Assembly (NCBI GenBank): GCA_963666975.2
Contig: CAXVYR010000004.1
Coordinates: 384,001-448,000, forward strand
DNA: 64,000 nucleotides
Origin: Terriglobia bacterium
GTDB taxonomy: Bacteria > Acidobacteriota > Terriglobia > 2-12-FULL-54-10
Direction of reading: 5' to 3'
The notes under the pieces were generated by a model. The model did not search any database, had not been told where the DNA came from, and was given only the letters and a program-made list of their open reading frames with translations. Shown in pieces: positions 37,803 through 59,042 of the stretch (positions within the stretch are counted from its first letter, which is position 1; the number at the start of each line of letters is the position of its first letter). Position numbers and translations under genes: made by a program.

Positions 37803-38026
37803 CTTGTACTCCTTTTTCTTTCTGTAAACCATAATATATAGACTATTCCATGTATTGGAAAGTTTCTGACAAATTCAGTTTAGAGGAATACTTAATTAAC
37901 TATCTTATTATCAATCAATTAAATAATTTCAAAAAATATATGAATCGTTCTATCTAATAGCGCCATCTCATGTAGTGAATTCGCTCATGATCGGGTGGAG
38001 GATCAGCAAAAAAAGGAGAAAACAAA

Positions 38027-38386
38027 ATGAAAATGAAGGACACATCCAAATACACCACACTCAACGAGAACAACTTCGAGAACGAGGTTATTCAAAGCAC
38101 CCAGCCCGTGTTGGTCGATTTCTGGGCTGACTGGTGCGGGCCGTGCCACGCGATTGCCCCGGTGATCAATGAGCTGGCGGGTGACTTTGAAGGAAAGGCT
38201 AAAGTCGGCAAATTGAACGTAGACGACGCTGCGGGCGTCGCTGCTCAGTACGGCATCCGCTCCATTCCGACCCTGCTCTTCTTCCAGAACGGCCGGGAAG
38301 TGGACCGTGTCATCGGCGTGGTTCCGCAGCAGGAACTCGCTGACAAGCTCAACGAGCTGGTGCAGAAGACCAGCGCCGTGGCATAA
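38027..38386 (+). CDS. trxA: Thioredoxin
   Basis: VLVDFWADWCGPC, YGIRSIPTL. Confidence 0.95.
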   Translation: MKMKDTSKYTTLNENNFENEVIQSTQPVLVDFWADWCGPCHAIAPVINELAGDFEGKAKVGKLNVDDAAGVAAQYGIRSIPTLLFFQNGREVDRVIGVVPQQELADKLNELVQKTSAVA

Positions 38387-38417
38387 GCAAGTATTCATTA
38401 AGGAAAGGAGAAATCAA

Positions 38418-39452
38418 ATGAAAGCAGCAGTGATTCGAGAATTTGGCGGTCCCGAGGTGCTGACGTATGAAAATATCGAGACTCCGAAGCCCAAGCCCGG
38501 GAACATCCTAATCAAGGTGCTCGCCGCCAAGGTCGAACGGCTGGACCATTACATACGGGAAGGGTCAGTCGTTCCACAGCTCCCCTTCCCGCATATCCTG
38601 GGCACGGATGCCGCCGGTGAAGTAGCTGAATTGGGCGCAGGGGTCAGCGGCTTTCAGATCGGCGAGCGCGTGATTCCGGTGCCCGGCTTCCCTCTCAAGG
38701 AGGAGGACTACAATATCCGCCCGGCGGCCACGGCGCCTAGTTTCACGCTTCTTGGATTGGGAATCTGGGGCAGCTATGCCCAGTATATGGAAGTTCCGGC
38801 ACGCTGGGTGCTCAAGGATGACACTGGCATGAAACCAGATGAAGTGGCGACGCTGCCCGTGCCCCTGGGCACCGCTGTTCGATCCGTTAAGAAGGTTGGC
38901 GAGGTCAAGGCAGATGACAAGGTGCTAGTCCAGGCTGGCGCGTCCGGCTCCGGGAGCATACAAATCCAGGTGGCCAGAGCCCTTGGCGCGCAGGTTGCCA
39001 CTACTGTCCGTGACGACGCCAAGGGCGAGTTTGCAAAGAGGCTGGGCGCAGAGCTTGTGATCAACACGCGTAAGGAAGATTTTGTGGAGCGCGTAAAGCA
39101 ATGGACCGGCGGACGGGGTGCTGACGTGGTAATCGACAATCTGGGTGGCGACATTCTGCCCAAAAGCATCGATGCGGTGAAGCCTCTGGGCATCGTGGTT
39201 GCTTTTGGCTTCACAGCCGGCACCGAGGTGACTTTTGACATCTTTAAATTCTTTTCTGCTCAGAAGCAACTGCGCGGCTCGATGGCGAGTGACGACGAGG
39301 ACCTCAAGTGGGGGCTGGAGCAAGTCCGCGCGGGCAGGATCAAATCCACACTCGACCGCGCGCTCCCGCTGAGCCAGGCGGCTGAGGCGCATAGATTGGT
39401 CTCTACCAACCGGGTCACCGGCAACATTGTGTTGCTGCCGTGGGGAGAGTAA
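38418..39452 (+). CDS. MDR-family NAD(P)H:quinone oxidoreductase-like protein
   Basis: MKAAVIREFGGPEVL, PHILGTDAAG, AGASGSG; AAGGAG RBS before ATG 38418. Confidence 0.88.
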   Translation: MKAAVIREFGGPEVLTYENIETPKPKPGNILIKVLAAKVERLDHYIREGSVVPQLPFPHILGTDAAGEVAELGAGVSGFQIGERVIPVPGFPLKEEDYNIRPAATAPSFTLLGLGIWGSYAQYMEVPARWVLKDDTGMKPDEVATLPVPLGTAVRSVKKVGEVKADDKVLVQAGASGSGSIQIQVARALGAQVATTVRDDAKGEFAKRLGAELVINTRKEDFVERVKQWTGGRGADVVIDNLGGDILPKSIDAVKPLGIVVAFGFTAGTEVTFDIFKFFSAQKQLRGSMASDDEDLKWGLEQVRAGRIKSTLDRALPLSQAAEAHRLVSTNRVTGNIVLLPWGE

Positions 39453-39502
39453 GCTCCCTCGGTACAAGGCAGCCGACATTGCTGCTCGCAAAGGAGCCGG
39501 TC

Positions 39503-40180
39503 ATGACACGGAAAATAACAGAGGCAAGGAAACTGATTTCAGTGAATGTTGGACTCCCGCGCGCGGTGGAATGGAAAGGCAGGATGATCACAACGGGAAT
39601 CTTCAAGGACCCGGTGGAAGGCCGCACCACCTTACACCGCCTCAATCTCGACGGCGACGGACAGGCCGACTTGACTGTTCACGGGGGGCCCGACATGGCG
39701 GTCTATGCATACCCGGCTGAACATTATGTCTACTGGCGACAGGAATTGCCGGGCATGGATCTACCCTGGGGAATGTTCGGGGAAAATTTTTCCACCGAGG
39801 GACTGCTGGAGGGATCCGTCAACATCGGCGACCGATTCCGCATCGGCACGGCCGAGGTTCAGGTTACGCAGCCACGCGTGCCTTGCTACAAACTGAGTCT
39901 CAGGTTTAGACGCGACGATATAATCAAGAGATTTCTTGCCAGCCGGCGCACCGGTTTTTACCTTCGAGTCTTGCAAGAAGGAGAGGTGGCTCCCGGCGAC
40001 CCCTTCGAGCTGACGAGCCGAACCGGAAGCAATGTCACTGTCGCGGATATTACCCGGCTGCATATGAAAGAAGATGTCAACCCCGACATCTTGCAACGAG
40101 CCCTTGAGCTCGAAGCGTTGTCCTGGAGTTGGCGAAAGCGCTTCCAACAACGGCAAGCGAAGCCGGTGGGCCCAGCTTAG
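39503..40180 (+). CDS. MOSC-domain protein (YiiM-like, with 3-alpha domain)
   Basis: GDGQADLTVHGG, FGENF, QPRVPCYKL, RTGFYLRV. Confidence 0.9.
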   Translation: MTRKITEARKLISVNVGLPRAVEWKGRMITTGIFKDPVEGRTTLHRLNLDGDGQADLTVHGGPDMAVYAYPAEHYVYWRQELPGMDLPWGMFGENFSTEGLLEGSVNIGDRFRIGTAEVQVTQPRVPCYKLSLRFRRDDIIKRFLASRRTGFYLRVLQEGEVAPGDPFELTSRTGSNVTVADITRLHMKEDVNPDILQRALELEALSWSWRKRFQQRQAKPVGPA

Positions 40181-40336
40181 AGCAATTTCACAAATGGTGT
40201 AGACCGTCCGAGCCGCGACAGTTATGGAGCGGCCATCCAGCGATGATCGGCCAACCAACGTTTCGTGGTCGCTCCTTTACAGTCGCGGCTCGGATTTCGG
40301 ACCGTGCGAGTCTACACCATTTGTGAAAACTGTATA
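40178..40336. mobile_element. MITE-like element with 19-bp perfect inverted repeats and an internal REP doublet
   Basis: TTTCACAAATGGTGTAGAC (40186-40204) and GTCTACACCATTTGTGAAA (40310-40328); TA at both ends; internal 29-bp IR at 40207-40235/40266-40294. Confidence 0.8.
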
Positions 40337-40396
40337 GAAGAACCAAAGAGCCGCATCGTGGTTTTAACGTCTGGGTTTTAACGCCTGGAGGCATTT

Positions 40397-41218
40397 ATGA
40401 CAGTTAACTTACTAGTTTTTCTGGCGATTGGGCTGCTGACGGCCTTTGGCTGCTCTACACTAACACCTGAAGTGAAACAACCCGAACCTGGAAGAGAAAT
40501 CGTAGCGCGAATGATTGAAGCGCACGGCGGGTTGGAGAAATGGCGGTCGGCGTCGACAGTGAGCTTCGAGGCTGCTTTGCTCCCACCTGGGGCCGACTCC
40601 CCTGTGGTTCATCGCGTGACAGTGGAGCAGGGGCCACGCCGTGCCTATCTGGATTTCCCCGGGATGGGCGCGCGGATTTCCTGGGACGGAGAGAAGGCAT
40701 GGAGTGAAAACTGGCAAGGTCCTTTTCCGCCCCGGTTCTTTGCGCTCCTCAGTTACTACTTCATGAACCTCCCATGGCTTGCGGCAGACCCCGGGGTGAA
40801 CCTCAGCGAGCCGGGGACAGGCATGCTCTGGGATGATCCGACCGAATACATCACAGTGAAGATGACTTTCGGGCCGGGCGTGGGTGATACGCCTGAAGAC
40901 TACTACATTCTGCACATCGACCCGGACAGCTACCGCCTGAGGGCAGCCGAGTTGACTGTTACCTATGCCGCCGTCCTACCGCCCGGCGTCGATGTGATGA
41001 CGGAAATTATCGTTTACGAAGAGTTCGCCACCGTGGATGGGCTTACTGTGCCGATGAAAAGCTCAATTTACGGCAAAGACGGCTCGTCCCTGGCGTCCTT
41101 CCCGGAGCTGAGGGACTGGTCATTTAGTAAGCCATTCGATGAATCGAGGATGGTGATGCCACCCGACGCGGTGCTCGATACGTCTAGCCCAACCCGGCCA
41201 GCCGGGACAGCGAAGTAA
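40397..41218 (+). CDS. Hypothetical lipoprotein (DUF6503-like)
   Basis: Lipobox LTAFGC; IEAHGGLEKW; YFMNLPW; VGDTPEDYY. Confidence 0.72.
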   Translation: MTVNLLVFLAIGLLTAFGCSTLTPEVKQPEPGREIVARMIEAHGGLEKWRSASTVSFEAALLPPGADSPVVHRVTVEQGPRRAYLDFPGMGARISWDGEKAWSENWQGPFPPRFFALLSYYFMNLPWLAADPGVNLSEPGTGMLWDDPTEYITVKMTFGPGVGDTPEDYYILHIDPDSYRLRAAELTVTYAAVLPPGVDVMTEIIVYEEFATVDGLTVPMKSSIYGKDGSSLASFPELRDWSFSKPFDESRMVMPPDAVLDTSSPTRPAGTAK

Positions 41219-41242
41219 AAGGGGGAAACCAACCAGCTAACG

Positions 41243-41344
41243 GATGAAGAGATAGCCAAGGCGGCGCTGTTTTTGGCGTCCACGGATTCGTCCTACATGC
41301 TCGGAGCCGAACTGGTGGCGGATGGCGGCAGATCGCAGCTTTAA
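41243..41344 (+). pseudogene. C-terminal remnant of an SDR oxidoreductase
   Basis: DEEIAKAALFLASTDSSYMLGAELVADGGRSQL*, the classic SDR C-terminus; N-terminus absent. Confidence 0.8.
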
Positions 41345-41427
41345 CCGGCAACGGGTGGCCGACCGCGACGCCGGAGTAGTTACGAGAGTTAAGAGATTTA
41401 CTGACAATTCTACTGGAGGAGAAAAAT

Positions 41428-41751
41428 ATGTCTCTTTACGGAATTTATGGGAGCCACACTGTCGAAGCGTGCCCCGTCAACAATCTGGAAAATGCAAAAA
41501 AGCTGGTTTCTTTCGCGGAGAGTGATCCCACCCCGCTCCTGGCGAAGCATCGAATCCACAACGTTCTGGGTCAGTATCACTCGGCCTTTGAACATACGTT
41601 CATTTGGATCGTGGATGCAGATGACCCGCATTTGATCGAGGAGTTTGCCCTGGAGACAGGTCTTGCTTCGTTCAATAAGCTGACAATCGTACCGCTCAAG
41701 AGTCTTAGCGAATGGGTCATCCCGCGGCTTAAAAAAGTGCATGGCTTATGA
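41428..41751 (+). CDS. Small hypothetical protein (HTVEACP motif, possible metal/redox ligand)
   Basis: GGAGGAG RBS, intact 107-aa ORF. Confidence 0.7.
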   Translation: MSLYGIYGSHTVEACPVNNLENAKKLVSFAESDPTPLLAKHRIHNVLGQYHSAFEHTFIWIVDADDPHLIEEFALETGLASFNKLTIVPLKSLSEWVIPRLKKVHGL

Positions 41752-41807
41752 ATTAACTGGTCGAGAAGGTCGAGAAAAATAAGCGTCGGGTTCGCCGACA
41801 TGCGGGT

Positions 41808-42944
41808 CTACTGCTTGAGCCGGAGCGCCTTGCGAGTGATGGTAGTAACCGGAAGCCGGCTCATCTGGCGCGGGGAAACCCAACGCTCCCGAGGCTCGAC
41901 GACCCGGCGATCCATCCGGGCCGCGTAGACAGCCACATGCAGTTTGTTGGATGTGATCGTGTGCTGTACGTGCCCGAGCAAGCTGCCCAGTCGAATTCCA
42001 TCGCGGGGCTCGGTTTTCCGATGGGCAGGAGAGTTTTTCCGGCTGTTCTCCTCCCACAGGGGCAACTCCCAGAACCCTCCCATCCATTTCGCGGTGCGCG
42101 CCCTGCGAACCAGTAACACTCGGCCCGCCGGGTCGAGCGCCAGAGCCGTTGTGAATCGGCGCGCCACGGGTTTGGACTTGCGCCTGACCGCCGGGTATCT
42201 CTCCACTTGATTTCGCCGAAAGGCCAAGCAATGGCTCCGCAGCGGACACTGTTGGCATCGTGGCTGCCTCGGCAGGCAGAGGGTCGCCCCCAATTCCATG
42301 AAGGCTTGGTTGCAGTCGCCGGGCCGCCGCCGGGACAAGAGCGCATCCGCCAAGTGCCTGCGAACTTGCTTGCCACGGGCAGTTTGAGGATCATCCGGCA
42401 ATGCGTACAAGCGCGCCAGAACCCTGGCAACATTGCCATCCAGGACCGGGAGCGGGACCCCGCAGGCGATGCTGAGCACGGCAGCAGCGGTATACTCGCC
42501 GACACCGGGCAACCGGAGCACGGCCTGGAGGTCCGTCGGAAACGAACCTCCGCATTCGCGCACAATCATCTGCGCCGCCTTCTGCAAGTTTCGCGCCCGC
42601 GAGTAGTAACCCAAACCGCTCCAGCACGCCAGCAAGCGTTGCTCGTCCGCTGCGGCCAATGCTTGCACATCCGGGAAAAGGCGGAGGAATCGCTCATAGA
42701 ATGGAACAACCGCCTGCACGCGGGTCTGCTGGAGCATGATCTCGGAAACCCAAATCCGGTACGGGTCGAGCGTCTTTCTCCAAGGAAGGCTCCGCTTGTG
42801 AAGGTCATACCACTTGAGAAGCTTTTGCCGAATTTGACTCTCTGCCTTGCTTTTCCCGACGGAGCTTGCCAAGCTTCTTGTCGAGTTTTGTGTTTTTGGG
42901 TTTGGCGTTTTTTGGTTTTGCGTTGGTTTCGTAACGCGGCTCAT
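41808..42944 (-). CDS. mutY: A/G-specific adenine glycosylase
   Basis: WVSEIMLQQT, WSGLGYYSRARNL, LPGVGEYT, DGNVARV, C-x6-C-x2-C-x5-C 4Fe-4S motif. Confidence 0.95.
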   Translation of the reverse strand: MSRVTKPTQNQKTPNPKTQNSTRSLASSVGKSKAESQIRQKLLKWYDLHKRSLPWRKTLDPYRIWVSEIMLQQTRVQAVVPFYERFLRLFPDVQALAAADEQRLLACWSGLGYYSRARNLQKAAQMIVRECGGSFPTDLQAVLRLPGVGEYTAAAVLSIACGVPLPVLDGNVARVLARLYALPDDPQTARGKQVRRHLADALLSRRRPGDCNQAFMELGATLCLPRQPRCQQCPLRSHCLAFRRNQVERYPAVRRKSKPVARRFTTALALDPAGRVLLVRRARTAKWMGGFWELPLWEENSRKNSPAHRKTEPRDGIRLGSLLGHVQHTITSNKLHVAVYAARMDRRVVEPRERWVSPRQMSRLPVTTITRKALRLKQ

Positions 42945-42974
42945 ACCAGATACACGCTCCGATGAAAACCTGTG

Positions 42975-44384
42975 TTACAGACTTTTCAGCCAGCGCGCCA
43001 GCGGCGCAGTGGGAAGGCCGGGCTGCATAAAGCGTTGCGGGTTTCCCGCCGCCTCGGTGACTAATTCTGCGGCTCGGTATCCGCTGCGAACCGCGCCCTC
43101 CATGGTCGGAGGCCACCCGGTCGCCGTCCAGTCTCCCGCCAGGAAAAAATTCTCAAAGGGAGTCCTCGCGCCCAGCCGAAGCGGGTCCAGCCCCGGCTGG
43201 AGCGATACGGTGGCTTTTGCTTCCTTCACAACAATAGACTTCACCAGTTCCGCCTTCCGGCTGAGAGGAAATAGCTCGTGGAGTTCCCGGAGCGCCATCG
43301 ACAGAATTTCATCCTGCCGCATCGTCAGCAAACCCCGCGATGCGCTGACCACCAACTGGATGTATTGAGGTGTTGCAGAACCCTGTTGACTCTCTCCCTG
43401 TTTTCTTCCAATTCGGGAGCGGTTGAAGACCCACTGAATGGTACGGCCAAGCACCGTAACATGGTCGAGTTCCATGACAGGCCGGTCAAACCACAGATGG
43501 ATTCCCGTGATCGGCGACCACTCTGGCTTTCGCAGCTTGTCCAGTTCCGGCCACAACTCCGGCCACTGCTCCGGGAGTTTTTCCGGAAACAGGCTGGCCA
43601 GGGCGTCGGGCGGAAGCGCGCTGATGTAATAGTCCGCCCTCTTCTCTCCGCCGTTTTGCAGATGGAGGCAGACGACCCGTCCCGCCTTCGATTGCACCCC
43701 GGCTACGTGCGTCCGAAGCTGCAAGGAACATGTTTCACTGAGAATCTTGCTGGAATAAAGCTCGCTCAAGGGAACCACCGGGACTCCCATGCGATATCCG
43801 CGGCGGTTGCTGAGAAAAGCCTCCACAAACACATGGAATGCGTAGCGGCTGGAGAGGTGTTCCAGGTCCTCGTTCAGGGCGCTGGTCAAAACCACGCGCC
43901 AAAAATTTTCAATGGCCGCGCTGGTCTGCCTTTGTTGCTTTAGCCAATCCATCATGGGCTGGCCGTCCTGAGGCTCGCGGTCCCGGAGAACGGCGAGCAT
44001 GGCCCGGGCGATGCCCCAGCGGTCCCGCCACCCGAGATCACGAAAGCGCAACAGCGACGGGAGCAAGTGAAATGGGGCCGGAAGTCCCGATGCGCTTATC
44101 GAGGAAAGCCCGCCGGGACCCAGGAAGAGGAAGCTGTCATAAAAGCGGAATTTCTCAGCCGCTCCGATGCGCCGGAAAAAATCCAGCAGGTTGGTGCAGC
44201 AGCCGAGCAGCACGTGCTGGCAGTTATCGACCGGCTCGATCCCGCCCGCCGGGATAAAAGACGAAGCGCGGCCTCCCAGCACCGGACGCTTCTCCAGAAT
44301 CTCCACCTGAAACTGAGCTTCCGCCAAGCAGGCAGCGGCAGCGAGCCCCGCCAGCCCGCCTCCTAGAATGATAACCCTTGGAAT
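42975..44384 (-). CDS. hpnE: Hydroxysqualene dehydroxylase HpnE (FAD-dependent)
   Basis: RVIILGGGLAGLAAA lies upstream of the track start; LGGRASS, DNCQHVLLGC, AGDWTATGWPPTMEGAVRSG; apparent ATT start at 44384. Confidence 0.9.
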   Translation of the reverse strand: MPRVIILGGGLAGLAAAACLAEAQFQVEILEKRPVLGGRASSFIPAGGIEPVDNCQHVLLGCCTNLLDFFRRIGAAEKFRFYDSFLFLGPGGLSSISASGLPAPFHLLPSLLRFRDLGWRDRWGIARAMLAVLRDREPQDGQPMMDWLKQQRQTSAAIENFWRVVLTSALNEDLEHLSSRYAFHVFVEAFLSNRRGYRMGVPVVPLSELYSSKILSETCSLQLRTHVAGVQSKAGRVVCLHLQNGGEKRADYYISALPPDALASLFPEKLPEQWPELWPELDKLRKPEWSPITGIHLWFDRPVMELDHVTVLGRTIQWVFNRSRIGRKQGESQQGSATPQYIQLVVSASRGLLTMRQDEILSMALRELHELFPLSRKAELVKSIVVKEAKATVSLQPGLDPLRLGARTPFENFFLAGDWTATGWPPTMEGAVRSGYRAAELVTEAAGNPQRFMQPGLPTAPLARWLKSL

Positions 44385-45271
44385 TGTTGCCTCTCCAGCT
44401 CGCGCCCTGCCTTATGACGGAGCCACATCCGGACGCCCCGAAGCACCACCCCTATTTTCTCCATTTCCGTCAGCGCAGCATCGCGCGCGAACACGTTGCA
44501 TTCATTCCGCTCGATGCTTCTCAGGATGCCGCGGTAGATGGCAATCAAGGCCCACAGGGCGGGCCGGCTCTCCGGCTCCACCATCTCGATCAAAGGATAG
44601 GTCCTTTCATAGAAATTTTGGGCGCGGGCGATCTGGAATCGCATCAAACCGAAGAACTCCCGGTTGTAGACGCCCGCTGTCAATTGTTCCGGCGAATACT
44701 CGAAGCGTTCCAGGTCCTCCAACGGAAGATAGATCCGGCCGCTGTTGGCGTCCTCGCGGATATCCCGCAGAATATTCGTCAACTGAAAAGCGATGCCGCA
44801 TTCCTCAGCCAGTTTTTTCGCCGCCGGGTCCCGGAACCCCAAAATATGCAGAGAAGCCAGGCCCACCACCGACGCCACCCGGTAGCAGTATGGATAGAGA
44901 TCGTCAAACGTCCGGTAGGAGCAGATGGAAAGGTCCATCTCGGCGCCGGTAATCAGGTCGTAAAAAAACTCCGGAGGGATGGAGTAGCGCCGGACGGCGT
45001 CGTGAAACGCGGGGAGAATCAAACTGTCGCCGTAGTCGCTGCCCAGCGCTCGTTCCAGCGCCTGCCGCCATTCCTGCAAGCGGGCTGCCTTGTCGGAAAC
45101 CGCGTCCGCGCCATCGGCCACGTCGTCACAGTAACGCATGAAGGCATACACGGCGCAGAATGCTTCGTGGCGCGGCTTGGGGAGCAGCAGGAAGCCGTAA
45201 TAAAAATTCCGCGCCCGCTGCCGGGTCAGCCGCCGGCAATAATCGGAGGAAGCTGCGAGGAGGGTTGGCAT
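44363..45271 (-). CDS. hpnD: Presqualene diphosphate synthase HpnD
   Basis: NFYYGF, YAFMRYCDD, YCYRVASVVG, FQLTNILRD, GRIYLP; start set at ATG 45271. Confidence 0.9.
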   Translation of the reverse strand: MPTLLAASSDYCRRLTRQRARNFYYGFLLLPKPRHEAFCAVYAFMRYCDDVADGADAVSDKAARLQEWRQALERALGSDYGDSLILPAFHDAVRRYSIPPEFFYDLITGAEMDLSICSYRTFDDLYPYCYRVASVVGLASLHILGFRDPAAKKLAEECGIAFQLTNILRDIREDANSGRIYLPLEDLERFEYSPEQLTAGVYNREFFGLMRFQIARAQNFYERTYPLIEMVEPESRPALWALIAIYRGILRSIERNECNVFARDAALTEMEKIGVVLRGVRMWLRHKAGRELERQQFQGLSF

Positions 45272-45272
45272 T

Positions 45273-46214
45273 TCACCTGCCCTTCCGGCGGGAAAACATT
45301 TGACCGGCCAGAACCGATACCAGCAACAGAGCCTTTTCCCCCTGGCCGAGCACGGGACGCCGGGCCAGTACATTGTAGTTTTGCCGTTCGATGCGTTTCA
45401 ATAGTTCCATTCCCGCGCGGCTGAACAGCTCCAAGTCCACCGCCAGCCGGACGCCTACCTGCGAGGCCAGCGGCAGGCCTTCCCTAAACAACTTCCATGT
45501 GCGCTCGACTTGCTCCTTCAGCAGGGCAACAAAATTCCCGTTATACCGAGAATGCGCCAGATCGTCCTCCGAGTACCCATGCCGGGCCATGTCGTCCAGC
45601 GGCAGGTATATCCGCCCGATGCGGAAATCCCGCCTGACATCCTGCCAGAAGTTGGCCAGTTGCAACGCCGTGCAAGTGCAGTCGGAAAGCCTCTTCCGCT
45701 CCGGGTCGCGATATCCGCACAGGTGGAGGACAAGCTGGCCCACCGGATTGGCCGAATAGCGACAGTACCCCAGAAGCTGCTGAAAATTCCGGTAGCGCGT
45801 CTTTGTTTGGTCCTGCCGGAAGGCGGTGATCAAATCCAGAAACGGTTGCTGGGGAATCTCGAATTGCTCGATTGTCTCCCGCAAGGCTACAAACACCGGA
45901 TGCCGGACGCGGCCCCGGTAACAATCCTGCAACTCCTCTTCCCACCGGTCCAGAAGAAACAGCGCACGGGCCCGGTCGCCGGTCTCGTCTCCCAAGTCGT
46001 CGGCCCAGCGGCAGTAGGCATACACCGGATAGAAGTGGACCCGCAGCTCGCGGGGAAGCAGCAGGCTGGCGATGGGAAAGTTTTCGTAGTGACCCCGGAC
46101 CAACTGTTCACAATACTGACGGGCTTGGCCGAGCGAAGGCGGCGAAGCAGGAAGTTCGCCCGTCCAGTCTGCGGGCTGGGAGGCGATGGCGGGGAAGGAC
46201 AGCTCGGCTCTCAT
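45273..46214 (-). CDS. hpnC: Squalene synthase HpnC
   Basis: HYENFPIAS, YAYCRWADDLGDE, YCRYSANPVG, LQLANFWQDV. Confidence 0.92.
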   Translation of the reverse strand: MRAELSFPAIASQPADWTGELPASPPSLGQARQYCEQLVRGHYENFPIASLLLPRELRVHFYPVYAYCRWADDLGDETGDRARALFLLDRWEEELQDCYRGRVRHPVFVALRETIEQFEIPQQPFLDLITAFRQDQTKTRYRNFQQLLGYCRYSANPVGQLVLHLCGYRDPERKRLSDCTCTALQLANFWQDVRRDFRIGRIYLPLDDMARHGYSEDDLAHSRYNGNFVALLKEQVERTWKLFREGLPLASQVGVRLAVDLELFSRAGMELLKRIERQNYNVLARRPVLGQGEKALLLVSVLAGQMFSRRKGR

Positions 46215-46252
46215 TTCTCAAGAAACGGACGACCGGGAACTCCGGGCCGTCC

Positions 46253-47293
46253 TCAGGGAAGGATCGCCGTTTTCAGGTCGCCGTTGCGGTTTGCCATGCG
46301 CCGCAGCAGCTCGGGGAGACCGCTCAAGGGCGCCTCGCCGGTAATGAAGTCCCGGCTGCGTATCTCGCCGCGGCTGATCGATTCCAGGGCTTTCCGAATA
46401 TATTTTGGGGTGTGATGAAAGCTGGCCTTCAAAGTGATTTCCGAGTAATGCAGCAGGGACGTGTCGAGCTGGACGGTGCTGCCGCTGGGACAACCCCCGA
46501 AGAAATTTACCGTTCCGCCCCGGTGAACCATATTGGCAGCCCACTCCCAAGTCTGTGGCGTGCCGACGGCTTCCACAGCAACGTCAGCGCCTCCGTTGCG
46601 GGTTAATTTGCGAACCTCCGCCACCACATCCCCGGCGAGGGTGGCATCCACAATCTCGTCCGCCCCCATACGCTGGGCCGCCACAAGCTGGCTGCGTCTT
46701 TTTCCTACCGCAACCACCCTGGCGCCTTTCAGCTTTGCCAGACGGATGAACATCAATCCGACGGGCCCCATGCCGATAATGGCCACAACATCGTTGCGTT
46801 GCAGTCCGGTTTCTTCCAGCCCGCGCAGCACGCAGGCCAGGGGCTCCACTAGGGCGGCGTCGACAAAATCGATGTGGCCCGGAATTTCCAGCAAATTCTG
46901 CCGGACAATGGGACCCGGGATGCGAATGTACTCCGCGTACGCTCCATTGTTAAACAGCAGCCGATCGCAAAGGTTGGCGCGGTCCCGTAGGCAATAACGG
47001 CATTCCCCGCACGGAGCGGAGTTGGCGGCAACCACCCGCATCCCTGTCCGAATATTCCGGACCTCCGGGCCGACCTCTTCCACTACACCCGCCAACTCAT
47101 GTCCGAAAATCGCCGGGGGGGTGATCATGCGGGCATGATATCCCTGACGATATACTTTGAGGTCTGTTCCACAGGTCAGGGCAGCCTTGATCCGAATCAG
47201 CACTTCGTCGGGACTCAAGGTGGGAACGGGCACCTGTTCGACTTTCAGGTCTTCTTTGCCGTACAGAACGGCGGCTGTCATTCTCCTCGTCAC
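46253..47293 (-). CDS. Zinc-binding alcohol dehydrogenase (hopanoid-cluster associated)
   Basis: CGTD, GHE, CxxCxxC, VEPLACV, GMGPVG. Confidence 0.9.
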   Translation of the reverse strand: MTRRMTAAVLYGKEDLKVEQVPVPTLSPDEVLIRIKAALTCGTDLKVYRQGYHARMITPPAIFGHELAGVVEEVGPEVRNIRTGMRVVAANSAPCGECRYCLRDRANLCDRLLFNNGAYAEYIRIPGPIVRQNLLEIPGHIDFVDAALVEPLACVLRGLEETGLQRNDVVAIIGMGPVGLMFIRLAKLKGARVVAVGKRRSQLVAAQRMGADEIVDATLAGDVVAEVRKLTRNGGADVAVEAVGTPQTWEWAANMVHRGGTVNFFGGCPSGSTVQLDTSLLHYSEITLKASFHHTPKYIRKALESISRGEIRSRDFITGEAPLSGLPELLRRMANRNGDLKTAILP

Positions 47294-47383
47294 TGTTATT
47301 CTTACCTCACAGGGCCCCGCAGAATCAGCGGGGTTGATTTAGCTCCTGAATAGACTATGCACCGCCCAGCGGAGAGATTCGGT

Positions 47384-47647
47384 TTATCCTGAACCCAACG
47401 CCGCGGCCAGCCCGCCGGCCGCCCGGCGGGAACTCCCTGCGAGCCTCCATAAATCTTTCACTCCACTGAGGCTCCGGATTCCCTCCCGGACAATATTCCA
47501 CCCAGATAACTTTTCATGCTCTCTCTGACAGCGCTCAAAGTCAATGGAAATACTCTGTTCCACCGAATCTGTAATGGACTTGATAGCGCAAAAGGGTACT
47601 CCCCCCAGGAGGGCGGCACGGGCCACTCCTGCTGATTCCATATCCAC
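47384..47647 (-). pseudogene. hpnG: C-terminal remnant of nucleoside phosphorylase-like hpnG
   Basis: VDMESAGVARAA...VPFCAIKSITD, the PNP/MTAN DMES motif; N-terminal half missing. Confidence 0.75.
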
Positions 47648-47725
47648 CCAGTTGAGACCGGTGCCGAGATAAGCGGGCATCTTACGGTTGAGAAAATCCA
47701 AAATAATCTTCCCCGTCGACGTCGG
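47642..47725 (-). pseudogene. hpnA: Internal remnant of hopanoid-associated epimerase hpnA
   Basis: PTSTGKIILDFLNRKMPAYLGTGLNWVD, matching the HpnA PTPTG..I.DFL...MPAY.DTGLN.VDV motif. Confidence 0.82.
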
Positions 47726-47903
47726 ATTCCAGCGAGATATCTGCTTCGAGTTCTCCCACCCAGAAACCTTCCGGATACTGCAAGGAAAGCAGATCGTCGA
47801 GAGACGCTGCAATGGATTGGGGGAAGGGGGATAACCCCGGTTTCACGGGGCAAGAAGCGCTGATCTTTCCATCCGAACACTTGAGCGCCGTCGTGATGCT
47901 CAT
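47721..47903 (-). pseudogene. shc: N-terminal remnant of squalene-hopene cyclase
   Basis: ATG overlaps the ispH stop; SIAASLDDLLSLQYPEGFWVGELEADISLESD contains the first QW repeat and GELEAD motif, then similarity stops after ~60 aa. Confidence 0.85.
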
Positions 47904-48925
47904 AGGTTGGATGGCATCCTCGTGTTTTCCGTTTCCAGGGAGACAAGCTCCGGCGGCAAAGCGAACCGCACGTCTTCCGACACCGGCTCGACCTCCCGCA
48001 CCTTACCGAAACCCTGGCTTTTCAGAAAATCGACCACCTTCGCGACCAGGAACTCCGGCGCGGAGGCCCCGGCGGTGACGCCTACTGTCTGGACCTTTTC
48101 GAGCCACTGGATATCAATGGCCGTCTCATCTTCAATCAAATAAGAAGGCAACCCGGCGTTGGCAGCCACTTCCACCAAACGGTTGGAATTGGAACTATTG
48201 GAAGAGCCGACCACCAGCAGCAGACTACAAAGGGAAGCGACGGCTTTGACTGCTACCTGACGGTTCTCGGTGGCGTAACAGATGTCCTGAGCCGGGGGGC
48301 CCACAATGCCCGGATACTTTGCCTGCAACGCCGCAATGATGCCCTTGGTTTCCTCCAGGCTCAGCGTCGTCTGGGTGAGGTAAGCCACCCGTGAGGGGTC
48401 CGGCACGTTCAGGCTTTGGACTTCCTCCTCGGAACTGATCAGCCATGTCTGCCCCAGGGCTTCGCCCAGCGTTCCGATTACTTCATCGTGATCTTTGTGT
48501 CCGATCAAAACGATGGAGTATCCCTCGCGTGCAAAGCGAACAGCTTCCAGGTGCACTTTGGTAACCAGCGGACAGGTGGCGTCGATCACTTGCAGGCGCC
48601 GCTCGGCCGCCACGCGCCGAACATCGGGCGAAACGCCATGAGCGCTGAAGATGATCCGGGCTCCCTCCGGCACCTCCTCGATTGCATCGAGGAAAATTGC
48701 CCCCTTGCGGGAAAGGTCCACAACCACATGATGGTTATGGACGATCTCTTTCCGCACATAGATGGGCGCGCCGAAAGTTTCCAGGGCGATATTCACAATA
48801 TCAATCGCGCGGACCACGCCCGCGCAAAAACCCCTGGGCTTCAGCAGAACCACCGTCTTGGCAGCCGGCAAAGCGGCTGGTCCGGAGGTAGTCGCAGGAG
48901 AATCTTGGTCCAGCAAAGGATTCAA
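47900..48925 (-). CDS. ispH: 4-hydroxy-3-methylbut-2-enyl diphosphate reductase
   Basis: PRGFCAGVVRA, IVHN, SAHG, DATCPLVTKVH, QTTLS, ICYATENRQ, SSNSNRL, TAGASAP. Confidence 0.96.
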   Translation of the reverse strand: MNPLLDQDSPATTSGPAALPAAKTVVLLKPRGFCAGVVRAIDIVNIALETFGAPIYVRKEIVHNHHVVVDLSRKGAIFLDAIEEVPEGARIIFSAHGVSPDVRRVAAERRLQVIDATCPLVTKVHLEAVRFAREGYSIVLIGHKDHDEVIGTLGEALGQTWLISSEEEVQSLNVPDPSRVAYLTQTTLSLEETKGIIAALQAKYPGIVGPPAQDICYATENRQVAVKAVASLCSLLLVVGSSNSSNSNRLVEVAANAGLPSYLIEDETAIDIQWLEKVQTVGVTAGASAPEFLVAKVVDFLKSQGFGKVREVEPVSEDVRFALPPELVSLETENTRMPSNL

Positions 48926-48976
48926 AGGAAAGTCCCGTTCTTGTTGGAGTCGTGCTTTCAGGAAAGGAAACCAGCG

Positions 48977-50560
48977 CTATTTCTTCCGGGCAATAACTTG
49001 TTTCGCATTTTCCGACAAAGCAGCCGCCTGGGGCAGCAACTCAATCGCTTTTAGGATTTGGGTGTCTGCGCCCGCTTCCAACTTGTAAGCTTCATCCATA
49101 CCGAAAACAGACAGATACAGCTCTAGTTTAATGTTGTGCCGAATGTAGTCCAAATGCTCGGCAAAATCCGGCTCATCAAAGTCGATTTGCTGTTCCTGTA
49201 AAAACGCCCGGAATCGCTCCAGCACGGCATCATCGGCCTCAAAGCTCCGGGAGATCGACCGATTTTCGGCCAGGTACCGTTTTGCAAAATTGAAGAAGGC
49301 GTATCCCCGGGCGAGCAACTGCTGAAAGCGGTTGAGTTTGGATTCCGGGATTTCAAAGTCCGGAGTGATGCCGCCTCCGCCGTAAACAACCCGGCCGGCG
49401 TCGGTCAATTTCACCTCGGCGTTCGCGTGGCTATCGTCTTTATTGTAATAATATTCGTACAGCGATATGCCCGAGTATTCGCGCTGGATCAAGCGGCCGC
49501 TCGGCGTATAGTATTTCGCCGTCGTCAGCGCCAAGCCGGTATTTTCGCTGAGCGGATAGACGGTTTGGACGAGCCCTTTTCCAAAGCTGGCCTCTCCCAC
49601 TATCAATCCCCGGTCGTGGTCTTGAACGGCTCCGGCTACGATTTCGGCCGCGCTGGCAGAGAAGCGGTTGAGCAACACAACCAGCGGGAAGCGCTCCCCC
49701 CGGTTCCCGCGGGCTGCCGTGTACCGCTTTTCGCGGGAAGAGCGGCCCTTATGAGAAACAATCAGTTGCCCGCGGTCGAGAAACAGGCCGGCGACGTTCA
49801 CCCCTTCCTGCAGAAGTCCGCCGGGATTGTTGCGCAAATCCAGGACCAGCCCTTCCCAGGTGCTGGAATTGAGCTCCCGCATTTTCGCTCTCAATTCCCT
49901 GCTGGTGGTTTCATTGAAACTGGAAATCCGAATGTAGCCGATTTTCGGAGCGATCAGAAAGGCATGTTCGATGCTCAGCCGGGGAATCTCATCCCTCACA
50001 ATGACAAATTGCAAGGGCTCCAGATCCCCTTCGCGCGAAACCCGGATGCGAACCGTTGTCCCCCTGGGCCCCTTCAGCAGTTCCGCGACTTCTGTGGTGT
50101 TTAAGTTTTCTGTGGTCGTGTCGTCGACCTGGACAATGATGTCGCCGGGACGCAAACCTGCGCGGTAGGCCGGTGAGCCGACAAACGGAGCCAGCACGAT
50201 GGTCTTCCCGTTCCGCGGTGTCACCGTCATCCCGACGCCGTAGTAACGTCCTTTCTGCTCTTCGCGCAGCAGCTTGAAGCTCCTGGGATCGAAAAAGTTG
50301 GAGTGCGGATCCAAACTGTGGAGCATGCCGGGAATCGCTCCGCCATAGATGACTTTCTCGGCGTCAACGGGAGCTGCGTAATTTTCCTCTACGGCGCGGA
50401 GTACCTTGGAAATGCTCTCGAGACTTTCCTCGACTCCGGACCCGGCAGCAGCGCTCTCGGCGGTGACTCGAGCGCCGTAGAGCCCGCCGACTAAAGCGCA
50501 AATCAAAATAACGCTGCAAAAAACAAAAAAGCGGCGCACTTCAGAGCTCATTCGTTTCAT
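48977..50560 (-). CDS. S41 family carboxy-terminal processing protease
   Basis: LDPHS, PDZ domain, LDLRNNPGG, SASAAEI, FGKGLVQ, GGITPD. Confidence 0.94.
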   Translation of the reverse strand: MKRMSSEVRRFFVFCSVILICALVGGLYGARVTAESAAAGSGVEESLESISKVLRAVEENYAAPVDAEKVIYGGAIPGMLHSLDPHSNFFDPRSFKLLREEQKGRYYGVGMTVTPRNGKTIVLAPFVGSPAYRAGLRPGDIIVQVDDTTTENLNTTEVAELLKGPRGTTVRIRVSREGDLEPLQFVIVRDEIPRLSIEHAFLIAPKIGYIRISSFNETTSRELRAKMRELNSSTWEGLVLDLRNNPGGLLQEGVNVAGLFLDRGQLIVSHKGRSSREKRYTAARGNRGERFPLVVLLNRFSASAAEIVAGAVQDHDRGLIVGEASFGKGLVQTVYPLSENTGLALTTAKYYTPSGRLIQREYSGISLYEYYYNKDDSHANAEVKLTDAGRVVYGGGGITPDFEIPESKLNRFQQLLARGYAFFNFAKRYLAENRSISRSFEADDAVLERFRAFLQEQQIDFDEPDFAEHLDYIRHNIKLELYLSVFGMDEAYKLEAGADTQILKAIELLPQAAALSENAKQVIARKK

Positions 50561-50681
50561 TTATTTATTTCTCCTGCCCTTCTCTTACGGAAAGTATAGC
50601 ATAAAGATTGTTGACGGCATTCCCAATTTCGCCCGTACCAGCGCGGTAAGCAGTGCCTTTCTCAGGGTAACCGTCTCATCG

Positions 50682-50711
50682 TTGTCACCGTCCGTCCCTA
50701 TGTTGTATACT
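50682..50711 (+). promoter_or_regulatory. Sigma-70 promoter of the tRNA pair
   Basis: TTGTCA-N18-TATACT, 11 nt before tRNA-Gly. Confidence 0.6.
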
Positions 50712-50722
50712 TGGATCGGTTA

Positions 50723-50798
<76 letters not shown>

Positions 50799-50802
50799 TT
50801 GG

Positions 50803-50952: not shown

Positions 50953-52047
50953 TCACTGCATGGACACCTGGGCGTCTTCGCCCTCATATTCGGCAATCTG
51001 TTTAGCGGCGGTGAATTCTTCTAATCGCCGCATTTCTGCGAATTGATGCTCCTCTGTCGGGTGAACGTATCGGAGCACCATCTGGATGCGCGAGTGCCCG
51101 AGCATTGCCGCTAAGGTCACAAGATCCATACCCGACATGGCCGCTCTGGTGGCCCAGGTGTGCCTCAAATCATACAGCCGGAAATAATTCACCTTGCTCT
51201 CCGTGAGTGCCAGCGTGTGTGCGTTATTCATTTTCAGGATGGGCCGGTTGGGATCGGTCCGCCCGGGAAAAGCGTAAGGGCTGCCATTGGCGGCGCTCAA
51301 ACGCTTTTTGAGAACTTCCCGAGCAGTCCTGTTCAGCCGAATCTTCCGTTTCGCCGCTTTGGTTTTTCCGTAAGGGTTGAAGAGGTAACTCTCCTTGAGG
51401 TGCACGTTCTCAACCCGGATTCGGTAAACTTCGTCCGGGCGCATACCCGTTTCCAGCATGATGACAGCCACGTCCTTGAGCGGTTGAGAGGCATTCGCAA
51501 GATATTTCCGCTGCTCTTTATAATTCAGCACGCGGGTTTGTTCGTTGTCTTCCTCTAGGAAATTTACGCGGCTGACCGGATTCTTAAGAACCACGTCGCC
51601 CTTTATTGCAAAGTTGAAAAGGGCCTTTAGGCAAGCCAATTCCCTGTTCACCGTGGCAGGCCGTAGTTTCTTTCCGGTTAACTGGCCGGTTTGTTCTCCT
51701 CGCTCTGCCTTGAACTTTTCCACATCTTCCGGAGTAATCCTATCGAGAGGCGCGTCTTTGAAATGCCGCAGGAGAGCCTTGCTGCTCGTGACGTAACGAA
51801 CATGAGTGCGCGGGTGCGCCCTGTGCTCCGTCCCAGACCACGCAAGGAAAGATTTCATCGCGCCTCGGAAGAAGGGAATGGATTTTGGCTCCATGATCCC
51901 CACCTCTCCCTTCGCAAGTGCGGTGCGACAGGCAGCTTCTATCTGCCGGGCCACTCGCGGATTGCCTTGCTTGGTGCTTTTCTGGACGTGCAGGCCGTTG
52001 AAAACGAAATGATACCAGTACGTCTTGCCTCGTTTGAAAATTGCCAT
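50953..52047 (-). CDS. Tyrosine recombinase/integrase
   Basis: N-terminal arm FKRGKTYWY, ATVNREL, ETGMR, YDLRHT, LGHS, MVLRY. Confidence 0.95.
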   Translation of the reverse strand: MAIFKRGKTYWYHFVFNGLHVQKSTKQGNPRVARQIEAACRTALAKGEVGIMEPKSIPFFRGAMKSFLAWSGTEHRAHPRTHVRYVTSSKALLRHFKDAPLDRITPEDVEKFKAERGEQTGQLTGKKLRPATVNRELACLKALFNFAIKGDVVLKNPVSRVNFLEEDNEQTRVLNYKEQRKYLANASQPLKDVAVIMLETGMRPDEVYRIRVENVHLKESYLFNPYGKTKAAKRKIRLNRTAREVLKKRLSAANGSPYAFPGRTDPNRPILKMNNAHTLALTESKVNYFRLYDLRHTWATRAAMSGMDLVTLAAMLGHSRIQMVLRYVHPTEEHQFAEMRRLEEFTAAKQIAEYEGEDAQVSMQ

Positions 52048-52282
52048 AATTACCTCCTAGCTAGATGAAATTTGGCTAAAGTCTTCTTCCCCATGATGGT
52101 GGCTCCCAGGGACGCTTTTCTAGGAGCGTGGTGATCTTTAATCTTTCCCGCGACGACCGTGAAGTCCTCGGATTAGGCGAACACGTCGCACCTGTCCACT
52201 TTCCCGACGCCGGTGACGACGCGAGGGCGGCCAGCTTCGAGATGCTCAAGAATCCCCCGGCGGCGTTTGTAGAATCCGAGGC

Positions 52283-52768
52283 TTATGCCTGCACCGCCAT
52301 CTGACTCTTGATGGCTCTGAGCATTGTCGTGACCGGTGCCGTGTTACCTGCCAGCATGTCTCGGCGGAGTTGTTCAGCTTTATCCTGGCCGAACATCTCC
52401 CTCACCAACTTGTCCAGTTCGATCACGCGCCGTAGAGTTCTGCCGGAAACTCTCGCCTCCGCTCCCGCCCTGTCGGTTAACCTGCCTAAGCGTTCTCGCT
52501 TGTGGGCCACGTGGCCCACTTTATCTGGAACGCTTTGGGTTCTGCCAAGCCATGCCAGTTTCCTGCATCGCGCCGTACAGTATTTCTTTGCTGAGCCGCG
52601 CCGTCTGCGTTGTGGGAGAGAGACACCGCAGTTAAGACAAACGACACCATCATGACGATCATCGTCCCCGAGCATGGCCGGAACCGCCTCCATGGGCAAC
52701 GAGGAAACCCGCTCCGGGTGCTCCAGTAGTTCGCTCAATCGTGGGATTGGAACGTGGTTCCTAGACAT
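52283..52768 (-). CDS. Hypothetical protein with a CxxC...CxxxC zinc finger and HTH-like segment
   Basis: CLNCG...KKYCTARCR; AEARVSGRTLRR. Confidence 0.55.
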   Translation of the reverse strand: MSRNHVPIPRLSELLEHPERVSSLPMEAVPAMLGDDDRHDGVVCLNCGVSLPQRRRRGSAKKYCTARCRKLAWLGRTQSVPDKVGHVAHKRERLGRLTDRAGAEARVSGRTLRRVIELDKLVREMFGQDKAEQLRRDMLAGNTAPVTTMLRAIKSQMAVQA

Positions 52769-52868
52769 TGGACACCTTCCGCTTAGGTTTATTTTGGCTT
52801 GGTTTTAGTCGCACCACCACACTCCGCCACGCTTGTATAGGCCACGGTTTCTTTTGTTGTTTGCCATT

Positions 52869-53447
52869 TCACTTTCTCCTCTTTTCGGATTTACTTCGAC
52901 TGGCTTTCTCGCCAAAAAGGTTTTGATCCGTTTGCCATCCTGCAATGGAGAGATCAAGCGAATCCAGGATCACTCCTAGGTGTATAAAAAAGGCGAGCCA
53001 CTTAAAAAGCCGCGTAAACCATCTAACGTCCCGAACAAGGCTGGCCAATTCAGCCTTTGTTAGATGACGAATCGGGGGGATATTAACCCTTACCCCGTCA
53101 AACTTACGGGGTAAAGGAGACGCCACACACGCTAGATAAACCTGCCGGTTCTTCTTTTGCAAAAGGTCGGAATGCTCCAGCAGATACGAGAGAACCTTCT
53201 TGGTTAGCCGGGGCTGTAGTCCCGCCTCCATCAGGTTTGCGGCAACCCCCAACAGATAGACCTCTTCGAGTGCATAAAGATTTGCCGCTCCCTTTCTGCC
53301 CGGTGCGCGAATGGATGGCTCAATCTGAAAAGGATTTCCCTTGCTCCAATTGCGCACTAGCGCGGGCGATATCTCCAGGATTTCGGCAATCTCCCGGCGA
53401 TCAAAGACTATCAATCGATGTCTGTTACGGGTGTTTGGGGTTGACAT
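52869..53447 (-). CDS. MerR-like HTH regulator (candidate element repressor)
   Basis: EIAEILEISPALVRNW...NLYALEEV; divergent from the xis-like genes. Confidence 0.7.
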   Translation of the reverse strand: MSTPNTRNRHRLIVFDRREIAEILEISPALVRNWSKGNPFQIEPSIRAPGRKGAANLYALEEVYLLGVAANLMEAGLQPRLTKKVLSYLLEHSDLLQKKNRQVYLACVASPLPRKFDGVRVNIPPIRHLTKAELASLVRDVRWFTRLFKWLAFFIHLGVILDSLDLSIAGWQTDQNLFGEKASRSKSEKRRK

Positions 53448-53541
53448 TTGGACTCCAGTATGCTAATGTAATCCAAGAAGTATAAAAATAGACTATTAAG
53501 TCCATCTCTAACCTAGGAAATTTTATATGAGGTCGAATGAG

Positions 53542-53769
53542 ATGTCAATAGAAATTTTGGCGATGGGTCTGAAAGAAGCTGCCGAAGCTGTGGGGCTCAG
53601 CCATTGGACCCTCAGAAAGCTAATCGCGGAAGACAAGCTGTCCGCCTTCCGGGTGGGGCGTCGGGTTTTGGTGGAACCGGAGGCCCTGCGGCAATTGGTC
53701 GAACGCGGCAAGGAAACTACGGAAACTCCCGGGCCAAGTGGAACCTCTCAAATGCAAGTGAAAGGATGA
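53542..53769 (+). CDS. Excisionase/AlpA-like HTH_17 protein
   Basis: LKEAAEAVGLSHWTLRKLI...RVGRRVLV. Confidence 0.82.
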   Translation: MSIEILAMGLKEAAEAVGLSHWTLRKLIAEDKLSAFRVGRRVLVEPEALRQLVERGKETTETPGPSGTSQMQVKG

Positions 53770-54041
53770 TCGAGTATATGGAGACAATCATGCCGGAACC
53801 CGAAACGGGAACACCACCGACGCTAACCAAACCAGTCGCACCCTTAGCCGTCACCATCCCGGAGGCTGCCCGGTTGCTGGGCCTGTCGCCGCATACAATC
53901 CGATTTTACGTCCGTAAGGGCAAGATCACCCCTGTCCGTTTCGGGCGTCGCGTCTCCATCCCGATGACGGAGATCGAGCGTCTGGCCCGCGAGGGTGTCC
54001 CGGCGAATCCAGAGACCCCCAGCAAGGAGGCAATCCAATGA
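53766..54041 (+). CDS. Second excisionase-like HTH_17 protein
   Basis: TIPEAARLLGLSPHTIRFYVRKG...RFGRRVSI; ATGA coupling to the previous gene. Confidence 0.82.
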   Translation: MIEYMETIMPEPETGTPPTLTKPVAPLAVTIPEAARLLGLSPHTIRFYVRKGKITPVRFGRRVSIPMTEIERLAREGVPANPETPSKEAIQ

Positions 54042-54253
54042 GCATGACGGGAATGGCGAGCACTAGCCCCCACAGAGACACCAACTCCATGAAAACCGTG
54101 CCTGAAGTCTTGCACGATTTGGAGGGGCAACGATTTTACGGCTCCGTAGAAATCAAGTATGAGGCAGGGCGAGTCGTCCTGCTGCGAAAGACCGAAACCA
54201 TCAAACCCGACCATCGGGACAACCGAGGTATCAAAGATGAGCACGGCACCTGA
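54038..54253 (+). CDS. Small DUF2292/YezD-like protein
   Basis: FYGSVEIKYEAGRVVLLRKTETIK; AAGGAGG RBS. Confidence 0.65.
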   Translation: MSMTGMASTSPHRDTNSMKTVPEVLHDLEGQRFYGSVEIKYEAGRVVLLRKTETIKPDHRDNRGIKDEHGT

Positions 54254-58886: not shown

Positions 58887-59042
58887 ACTTCCTCAATCAT
58901 CCGGCACAAATTATCGGCCCGGTAACAAGATTTAACATATTGATAAATAAGTGGGTTATGAATTACCATTAAATTTGGTGGTGGCATCCCTGAACATTAC
59001 GCCTTCATCTGTGAATGTGACAGGAAAAGTGATTTTTTAGTC

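Follow-up and report, generated by a model that had tools for sequence, protein, structure and literature searches.

In a soil-type acidobacterium, the genes for hopanoid synthesis have been removed by deletion, the three genes for squalene synthesis from the same cluster, hpnC, hpnD and hpnE (together hpnCDE), are intact and conserved, and no known enzyme acting downstream on squalene is encoded in the genome; the pathway probably ends at squalene itself, selection for which has probably spared hpnCDE after a recent loss of the hopanoid genes. Here, we describe this locus in a 64-kb stretch of DNA (the window; G000:C4:384001-448000) from genome G000 (4.23 Mb, 4 contigs, 98.88% complete), and compare it with a sample of 41 genomes of the same family and class. 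These include a sister species, G002 (a metagenome-assembled genome (MAG), 83% complete, in 430 contigs), a second congener, G001, and further relatives G003, G008 and G009. Coordinates are those of the window unless a locus of another genome (L number) is named. As shc (encoding squalene-hopene cyclase, SHC), hpnH, hpnA, hpnG and hpnJ have been deleted, G000 can neither cyclise squalene nor build bacteriohopanepolyols.

In the mechanism we propose, an ancestral cluster of the order ispH-shc-hpnH-hpnA-hpnG-ADH-hpnC-hpnD-hpnE-mutY (ADH, alcohol dehydrogenase) underwent two deletions between short direct repeats, of about 3.44 kb and 0.85 kb, and a separate event removed hpnJ. The sole ispH has stayed, being needed by the methylerythritol phosphate (MEP) pathway, and the kept ADH-hpnC-hpnD-hpnE unit most probably still turns farnesyl diphosphate into squalene via presqualene diphosphate and hydroxysqualene. 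The end product would then be squalene itself, serving as a membrane constituent.

Remnants of the hopanoid genes and their deletion junctions

The ancestral-type gene order is kept in G002, over two contigs (C332 and C188), with scores of 734.6 bits for SHC, 444 for HpnH, 452 for HpnA and 761 for HpnJ, and its proteins are 91-97% identical to those of G000 over the cluster genes. In G000, the interval between ispH and the ADH gene (47294-47899, minus strand) holds gene remnants, among them a 520-nt scar composed of the N-terminus of shc, 94 nt of hpnA and the C-terminus of hpnG, joined at short direct repeats. The shc remnant (47715-47903, minus) starts at the original ATG at 47903, which overlaps the ispH stop, and has about 63 N-terminal codons left. 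Aligned to G002, it carries a private 10-nt deletion and 1-nt insertion. It is matched by the SHC profile (TIGR01507) at positions 16-51 of 640 (47721-47828, 22.4 bits), and 48000-47720 aligns to G002 locus L022 6427-6716.

The first deletion junction (47720-47732, minus) is a 13-nt near-repeat, CTGGAAnCCGACG, which occurs in shc as well as in hpnA of G002 and is shared by the two flanking G002 alignments. The loss here of about 3.44 kb took the remaining shc, the entire hpnH and the 5' half of hpnA. The internal hpnA fragment that follows (47639-47732, minus; TIGR03466 positions 177-208 of 327) corresponds to G002 L022 10147-10240, with 84% amino-acid identity, and runs into the second junction (47639-47648, minus), a 7-nt microhomology, GGTGGAT, common to hpnA and hpnG. 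There, hpnA is fused in frame to hpnG with about 0.85 kb lost, a size derived from G003 (7518 to 6672) and from the two G002 contigs when bridged via G001. The C-terminal hpnG remnant (47384-47648, minus; TIGR03468 positions 125-210 of 212, 48.2 bits) comprises the last ~88 codons with the stop retained, and is 79% identical in amino acids to the intact hpnG of G001. Both the hpnA and hpnG pieces lie within a single open reading frame (ORF) of 142 amino acids (47384-47812). Both junctions are ordinary microhomology deletions. The scar is real and not a chance resemblance, because its three pieces align collinearly to the intact G002 cluster, with 88% (shc), 91.5% (hpnA) and 90.5% (hpnG) identity.

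About 24 kb from the main scar, 101 nt of the interior of hpnJ remain (23637-23737, minus), with 97% identity to G002. The profile match covers positions 163-200 of 472 (23626-23739) with one TGA inside; 1,188 bp have been lost from the 3' side, and the 5' side borders on unrelated DNA. The initial annotation, made from the letters of the stretch, had described ispH, the Zn-dependent ADH, hpnC, hpnD and hpnE as full length and tightly coupled, and shc, hpnA, hpnG and the distant hpnJ as scars. Every item of this description was confirmed, with hpnE being full length if it starts at an ATT codon.

Over the 520 sites of the main scar, there are 25 changes on the G000 branch and 15 on the G002 branch, and 16 of the 25 fall at third codon positions. 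Dating the loss from this divergence was tried and rejected, as the changes are too few.

Could shc and its partners exist in the organism and have been missed or collapsed in assembly? With 1.1% of marker genes missing and the genome in 4 contigs, there is some room for this, but remnants with defined junctions lie at the native locus, and the same structure recurs in independent data. Thirteen public sequencing runs hold at least half of the sampled words of the 5,951-nt stretch that includes the scar, and runs with a share of at least 0.97 come from 4 studies. In run X6, from another study, a single contig (47601-48925) spans both junctions with no difference, and another covers 42975-47606 with one difference. 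We therefore regard an artefact as extremely improbable.

Short contigs from two metatranscriptomic libraries match parts of ispH, the scar and the ADH gene with 100% identity. They hint weakly at transcription from ispH to the ADH gene, weakly because DNA carry-over is not excluded. Among the contigs of RNA libraries X18 and X19, none lies on hpnC, hpnD or hpnE save for one 31-nt partial match; as these are contig data, this is no sign of silence. A metatranscriptome contig of run X20 (47720-48010) is 95-99% like the window, has 84 letters where G000 has 75, and at 47720 passes into a G002-type intact shc, so that RNA library contains a close relative whose ispH-shc junction is intact. A scan of 41700-50800 gave 5 promoter-like sites (2.4 expected) and 18 terminator-like sites (11.9 expected), and did not clarify operon structure.

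Intact squalene genes and the search for squalene-using enzymes

All intact genes of the cluster lie on the minus strand. Upstream is an S41 protease gene (48977-50560), followed by ispH (47900-48925), encoding 4-hydroxy-3-methylbut-2-enyl diphosphate reductase (NF002189, 443.5 bits; TIGR00216, 320 bits; LYTB, 307.7 bits). This gene is single-copy in G000 (one locus in tblastn of the genome), and its protein is 93% identical to that of G002, with a ratio of non-synonymous to synonymous change (omega, pairwise Nei-Gojobori) of 0.16. Beyond the scar lie the intact Zn-dependent ADH gene (46253-47293) and, after a gap of 38 nt, hpnC for hydroxysqualene synthase (45273-46214), intact and matching TIGR03464 at positions 3-266 of 267 with 341.6 bits (cut-off 250.45). 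The best HpnC matches among those listed are from Terriglobia and Acidobacteriaceae MAGs, with 52-61% identity, in a listing that appears to omit closer relatives. The next gene, hpnD (44363-45373), overlaps hpnC and is assigned to presqualene diphosphate synthase. Its ORF is intact and its top match is TIGR03465 (245.4 bits, under the cut-off of 278.6), with the cyanobacterial CrtB profile second (232.5 bits); the predicted function rests on its location, flanked by hpnC and hpnE, and on its orthology to the corresponding gene in SHC-bearing relatives. The first ~34 codons of hpnD overlap hpnC, and the true start may lie further downstream.

The gene for hydroxysqualene dehydroxylase, hpnE, overlaps hpnD and is followed by mutY (41808-42944) after a gap of 30 nt. 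It scores 391.3 bits with TIGR03467 (cut-off 283.05). As listed, hpnE spans 42975-44327 from a TTG start at 44327, which lies downstream of an in-frame GxGxxG motif for binding flavin adenine dinucleotide (FAD). Upstream, the frame is open only to 44410 and contains no ATG, GTG or TTG. An ATT at 44384, 5 nt after GGAGAGG and overlapping the end of hpnD, is conserved in G000 (window 44363-44413, minus), G001 (L030 8461-8518) and G002 (L031 3319-3376), and G003 has a GTG three codons upstream of the ATT position. Translation likely starts at this conserved ATT, giving hpnE coordinates of 42975-44384, and the gene is intact on that premise. The odd start is common to SHC-bearing G002 and is older than the loss of shc.

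Squalene synthesis by HpnCDE in three steps is attributed to Pan et al. (2015), as quoted in Damste et al. (2017) (PMC5462960). The G000 genes resemble that pathway in having two SQS_PSY-family paralogues followed by an amine-oxidase-family flavoprotein, with HpnC and HpnE above their equivalog cut-offs. They differ from the standard in the lower HpnD score and the apparent ATT start of hpnE, and their activity is predicted.

The initial annotation had called for a whole-genome profile check for a second SHC, an oxidosqualene cyclase, squalene epoxidase, hpnH and desaturases, and this check found none. For SHC, the whole-genome search returned the scar only, with no full-length cyclase anywhere in this 98.88%-complete genome; PF13243 (SQHop_cyclase_C) has no match, and PF13249 (SQHop_cyclase_N) matches the scar remnant only (17.4 bits). 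The best of 6 genome matches to HpnH (TIGR03470) is a generic radical-SAM protein at 50.8 bits (cut-off 225.05), with tblastn identities of at most 26%. Genome searches for full-length HpnG, HpnA and HpnJ gave fragments only, the other HpnA-like match being a 33%-identical short-chain dehydrogenase/reductase, and tblastn of G000 with SHC, HpnH, HpnA and HpnJ of G002 and HpnG of G001 and G003 found the scars and distant paralogues only. With the syntenic copies deleted and no SHC, cyclase domain or above-cut-off HpnH in the genome, the suggestion that this lineage lost the capacity for hopanoids is borne out.

Other users of squalene were also not found in the genome: no squalene epoxidase (PF08491), no oxidosqualene cyclase in profile searches, and no SQS_PSY gene beyond hpnC and hpnD. 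The full-length amine-oxidase-family genes of G000 are hpnE and a protoporphyrinogen oxidase gene beside ferrochelatase; PF01593 gives two further weak partial matches, one being a glutamate synthase small subunit. No CrtI/CrtN desaturase is present in G000, and TIGR02734 finds nothing in G000, G001, G002 or G003. Because these genome-wide searches are empty, G000 encodes squalene synthesis and no known squalene-using enzyme. It has the squalene-only genotype, defined as intact HpnCDE in a genome with no SHC or oxidosqualene cyclase, squalene epoxidase or CrtN. One hopanoid gene remains as an intact ORF, hpnI, for the bacteriohopanetetrol glucosamine glycosyltransferase (21937-23136, minus; TIGR03472, 336.9 bits, cut-off 310). 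It is orphaned, the steps that make its substrate no longer being encoded.

These results bear on the idea, raised in the initial annotation, that squalene is kept as precursor of another triterpenoid, possibly via the Zn-dependent ADH and HpnI, or of a C30 carotenoid. The ADH gene is ug2 of Damste et al. (2017) (PMC5462960), which in the part of that paper available precedes hpnC in subdivision 1 and 3 genomes. Its orthologues (55-97% identity) occur in 19 of the 41 genomes including G000, lie within a few hundred bases of hpnC wherever both coordinates are listed, and are absent from genomes without an HpnC or HpnD match (G005 has a partial HpnC at a contig end only). This close linkage, a 70% identity across families (to the hpnC-adjacent ADH of G036) and the intact hpnI speak for such a route, as does the existence of a squalene-to-C30-carotenoid route in other phyla: according to the accessible text of Santana-Molina et al. 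(2022) (PMC9907078), squalene is converted to C30 carotenoids in Planctomycetes and others by a route that needs CrtN and CrtP. G000 shares with that route the use of HpnCDE squalene for something other than hopanoids, but lacks CrtN and CrtP, and it also has no cyclase domain or squalene epoxidase. Moreover, G003 and all genomes of family f5 have hpnCDE and no ADH, and G001 retains hpnCDE though both its ADH and hpnI are lost; ug2 is thus dispensable to the squalene module, an accessory that performs no required step, and this, taken with the disappearance of hpnI from G001, argues against a route via ADH and HpnI. Around the SHC-less hpnCDE loci (2 of 7 annotated, G036 and G017), no gene is common beyond ispH and the ADH. 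We consider this idea very unlikely.

In family f11 (G036 L137 5535-7671; G028 L136 5883-8019), two Zn-dependent ADH genes lie between ispH and hpnC; the hpnC-adjacent one is the ug2 orthologue, 70% identical to that of G000, and the other is only 30% identical.

Constraint on hpnCDE and the fate of shc in relatives

Omega was computed for the G000, G001 and G002 pairs, with eight flanking genes as controls. Synonymous divergence (dS) is about 0.2 between G000 and G002 and 0.4-0.7 between each of these and G001, so G001 is the outgroup to this pair and was used to polarise changes on the branches. Over all three pairs, omega of hpnC, hpnD and hpnE is 0.11-0.22 (per gene, 0.11-0.18 for hpnC, 0.15-0.16 for hpnD and 0.17 for hpnE), and that of the controls is 0.13-0.37, so the comparison with relatives proposed in the initial annotation finds these genes to be like their neighbours. 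On the G000 branch, hpnCDE has accumulated 72 synonymous and 31 non-synonymous changes, compared with 52.5 and 29.5 on the G002 branch and 240.8 and 138.2 in the controls on the G000 branch; there is no non-synonymous excess (Fisher p 0.43 and 0.25). At columns at least 95% conserved among acidobacterial homologues (83 for HpnC, 19 for HpnD and 66 for HpnE), G000 deviates at 5 of 98 in HpnC, 0 of 42 in HpnD and 7 of 86 in HpnE, and all of these deviations are common to G002, with none private. There is no sign of relaxation of hpnCDE in G000.

Several observations weigh against the proposed mechanism. HpnD falls under its NCBIfam equivalog cut-off and hpnE has no canonical start before the FAD motif, both of which are also seen in SHC-bearing G002. 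Distant CrtI-family genes (115-128 bits) are present in three other SHC-less genomes, G025, G033 and G036, so squalene may have another fate there. The genes were lost from G000 recently: the scar pieces retain 88-97% identity to their G002 counterparts and a third-position bias. The orphan hpnI has an omega of 0.19 against G002, with 10 amino-acid changes on the G000 branch compared with 8 on that of G002, and so shows no more relaxation than hpnCDE does; G001 likewise retains an intact orphan hpnG. The intact state of hpnCDE in G000 may thus partly reflect a lack of time. Since the orphan hpnI behaves alike, the branch test cannot separate selection from recency, and the case for selection rests on the relatives and not on G000. 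Of the earlier claim that selection keeps squalene synthesis, the absence of relaxation and the support from relatives stand, but G000 alone cannot prove it, its loss being recent and its hpnI as conserved as hpnCDE.

The young scars and well-preserved orphans also favour a rival in which decay is ongoing, the whole pathway is dispensable, squalene is not selected for, and hpnCDE, the ADH gene and hpnI are relics that have yet to be deleted. Complete loss does occur, as G008 of the same family lacks both SHC and HpnC. Four lines of evidence run counter to this rival: the lack of private changes at conserved HpnCDE sites in G000, a second deletion history in the genus that also spared hpnCDE, the frequency of SHC-less HpnC-bearing genomes in the class, and purifying selection within an SHC-less family. 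We consider it somewhat unlikely.

The second history is that of G001, which has no SHC. Only the first ~30-39 codons of its shc remain, running in frame into the start of an intact hpnG (L030 10386-11480; TIGR03468, 106 bits, below cut-off), with shc, hpnH and hpnA lost. Its ADH gene is cut to the last ~35 codons immediately upstream of hpnC, one deletion ending ~105 nt before the ADH end; hpnI and hpnJ were not found in this genome, and hpnCDE is intact. Because the junctions differ, G000 and G001 represent two independent dismantlings that spared hpnCDE. Dating the G001 loss from the ~105-nt ADH remnant was rejected, as its similarity to G000 is about that of intact genes, and the printed counts of 110/165 and 112/163 include non-homologous flank.

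Among family relatives, 11 of 13 have SHC. In the 41-genome sample, HpnC is above cut-off in 24 genomes, and eight of these (G000, G001, G017, G025, G033, G028, G036 and G040) have no SHC match, including all three genomes of family f5, which represent three genera, and both genomes of f11. The G036 locus has the order ispH-ADH-ADH-hpnC-hpnD-hpnE, and in G017 hpnCDE follows a cell-division cluster. Between the two f11 genomes, G028 and G036, omega of hpnC, hpnD and hpnE is 0.14-0.17. Judged from these genomes, a cyclase-free squalene module is a recurrent and selectively maintained state in the class, which makes selection the likelier reason for the survival of hpnCDE in G000. We infer that G000 still produces squalene as its end product and that hpnCDE has survived in this genome through selection and not because too little time has passed.

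The hpnG of G002 looks damaged (L022 10618-12565; L031 1-330). On contig C332, the gene breaks off after about codon 142 and is followed by 1.5 kb of unrelated DNA with an SgcJ/EcaC-family gene, and on C188 its 3' part lacks 1 nt of a G run when compared with G000 and G001. Either the side-chain pathway has begun to decay in G002 or the MAG is misassembled here.

A bolder proposal, which we offer tentatively and think unlikely as it stands, is that, in this class, ispH, ug2 and hpnCDE form a self-sufficient membrane-lipid module that can functionally replace hopanoids, with free squalene or an ADH-made alcohol or ketone as product, and that lineages switch to it repeatedly. If true, a single genus would contain two recent and independent hopanoid-to-squalene switches, in G000 and in G001, and G002 and G000 would form a before-and-after pair on what hopanoids do that squalene cannot.

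Surrounding genes, known genotypes and significance

Beyond the S41 protease gene, 50953-63032 is a mobile-looking stretch in which GC content falls to 52-55%, with a tyrosine recombinase (50953-52047), a Mutator-family transposase (56729-58030), a DUF6088/AbiEii toxin-antitoxin pair (59092-60722) and an HNH endonuclease (60845-61786). On the other side, at 37000-41800, G000 has about 4.8 kb that are extra relative to G002, where mutY adjoins the gene for a 480-amino-acid protein (ORF positions in L031). This extra DNA encodes a TetR regulator, a quinone-oxidoreductase-type ADH, a MOSC/YiiM protein and a 273-amino-acid protein, and G001 has part of it. The window also contains a further MEP pathway gene, ispE (27688-28614; TIGR00154, 184.8 bits).

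The suggestion in the initial annotation of an undescribed rewiring is not supported: hpnCDE without shc has already been published for subdivision-6 Acidobacteria. In the text available of Damste et al. (2017) (PMC5462960), cultured and environmental members of that subdivision are genetically capable of making squalene and lack shc and other bacteriohopanepolyol genes, and no hopanoids are reported in the cultured strains. Like that genotype as described there (e.g. Luteitalea pratensis), G000 has hpnC, hpnD and hpnE and lacks shc, hpnH, hpnG and hpnJ. Unlike it, the G000 state is newly derived in a hopanoid-bearing family, with readable scars, an orphan hpnI and a second independent loss in the genus. 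Compared with the subdivision 1 and 3 clusters A (ug2-hpnC-hpnD-hpnE), B (shc-hpnH) and C (hpnA-hpnG), as set out in the same part of that paper, cluster A is complete and in the usual order in G000, whereas B and C are reduced to the 520-nt scar; G002, G003 and G009 show a concatenated arrangement. Squalene may itself affect membrane properties, according to the accessible text of Santana-Molina et al. (2022) (PMC9907078). In a literature search on hopanoids, squalene and hpnC in Acidobacteria, supplements aside, no paper on such in-progress hopanoid loss was found. The genotype itself is already in print; what is new is its recent and repeated origin in a hopanoid-bearing family, with readable junctions and the sister genome complete.

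Hopanoids and fossil hopanes are used as bacterial biomarkers, and Acidobacteria of hopanoid-bearing subdivisions are assumed to be producers. Hopanoid production can be lost within a genus, as two of three species here have lost it independently with the squalene genes kept. Neither the presence of hpnCDE nor family taxonomy can predict hopanoid production, and shc and hpnH therefore need to be checked directly. Close genomes with and without the cyclase provide a natural experiment on free membrane squalene and on the function of the ug2 ADH.

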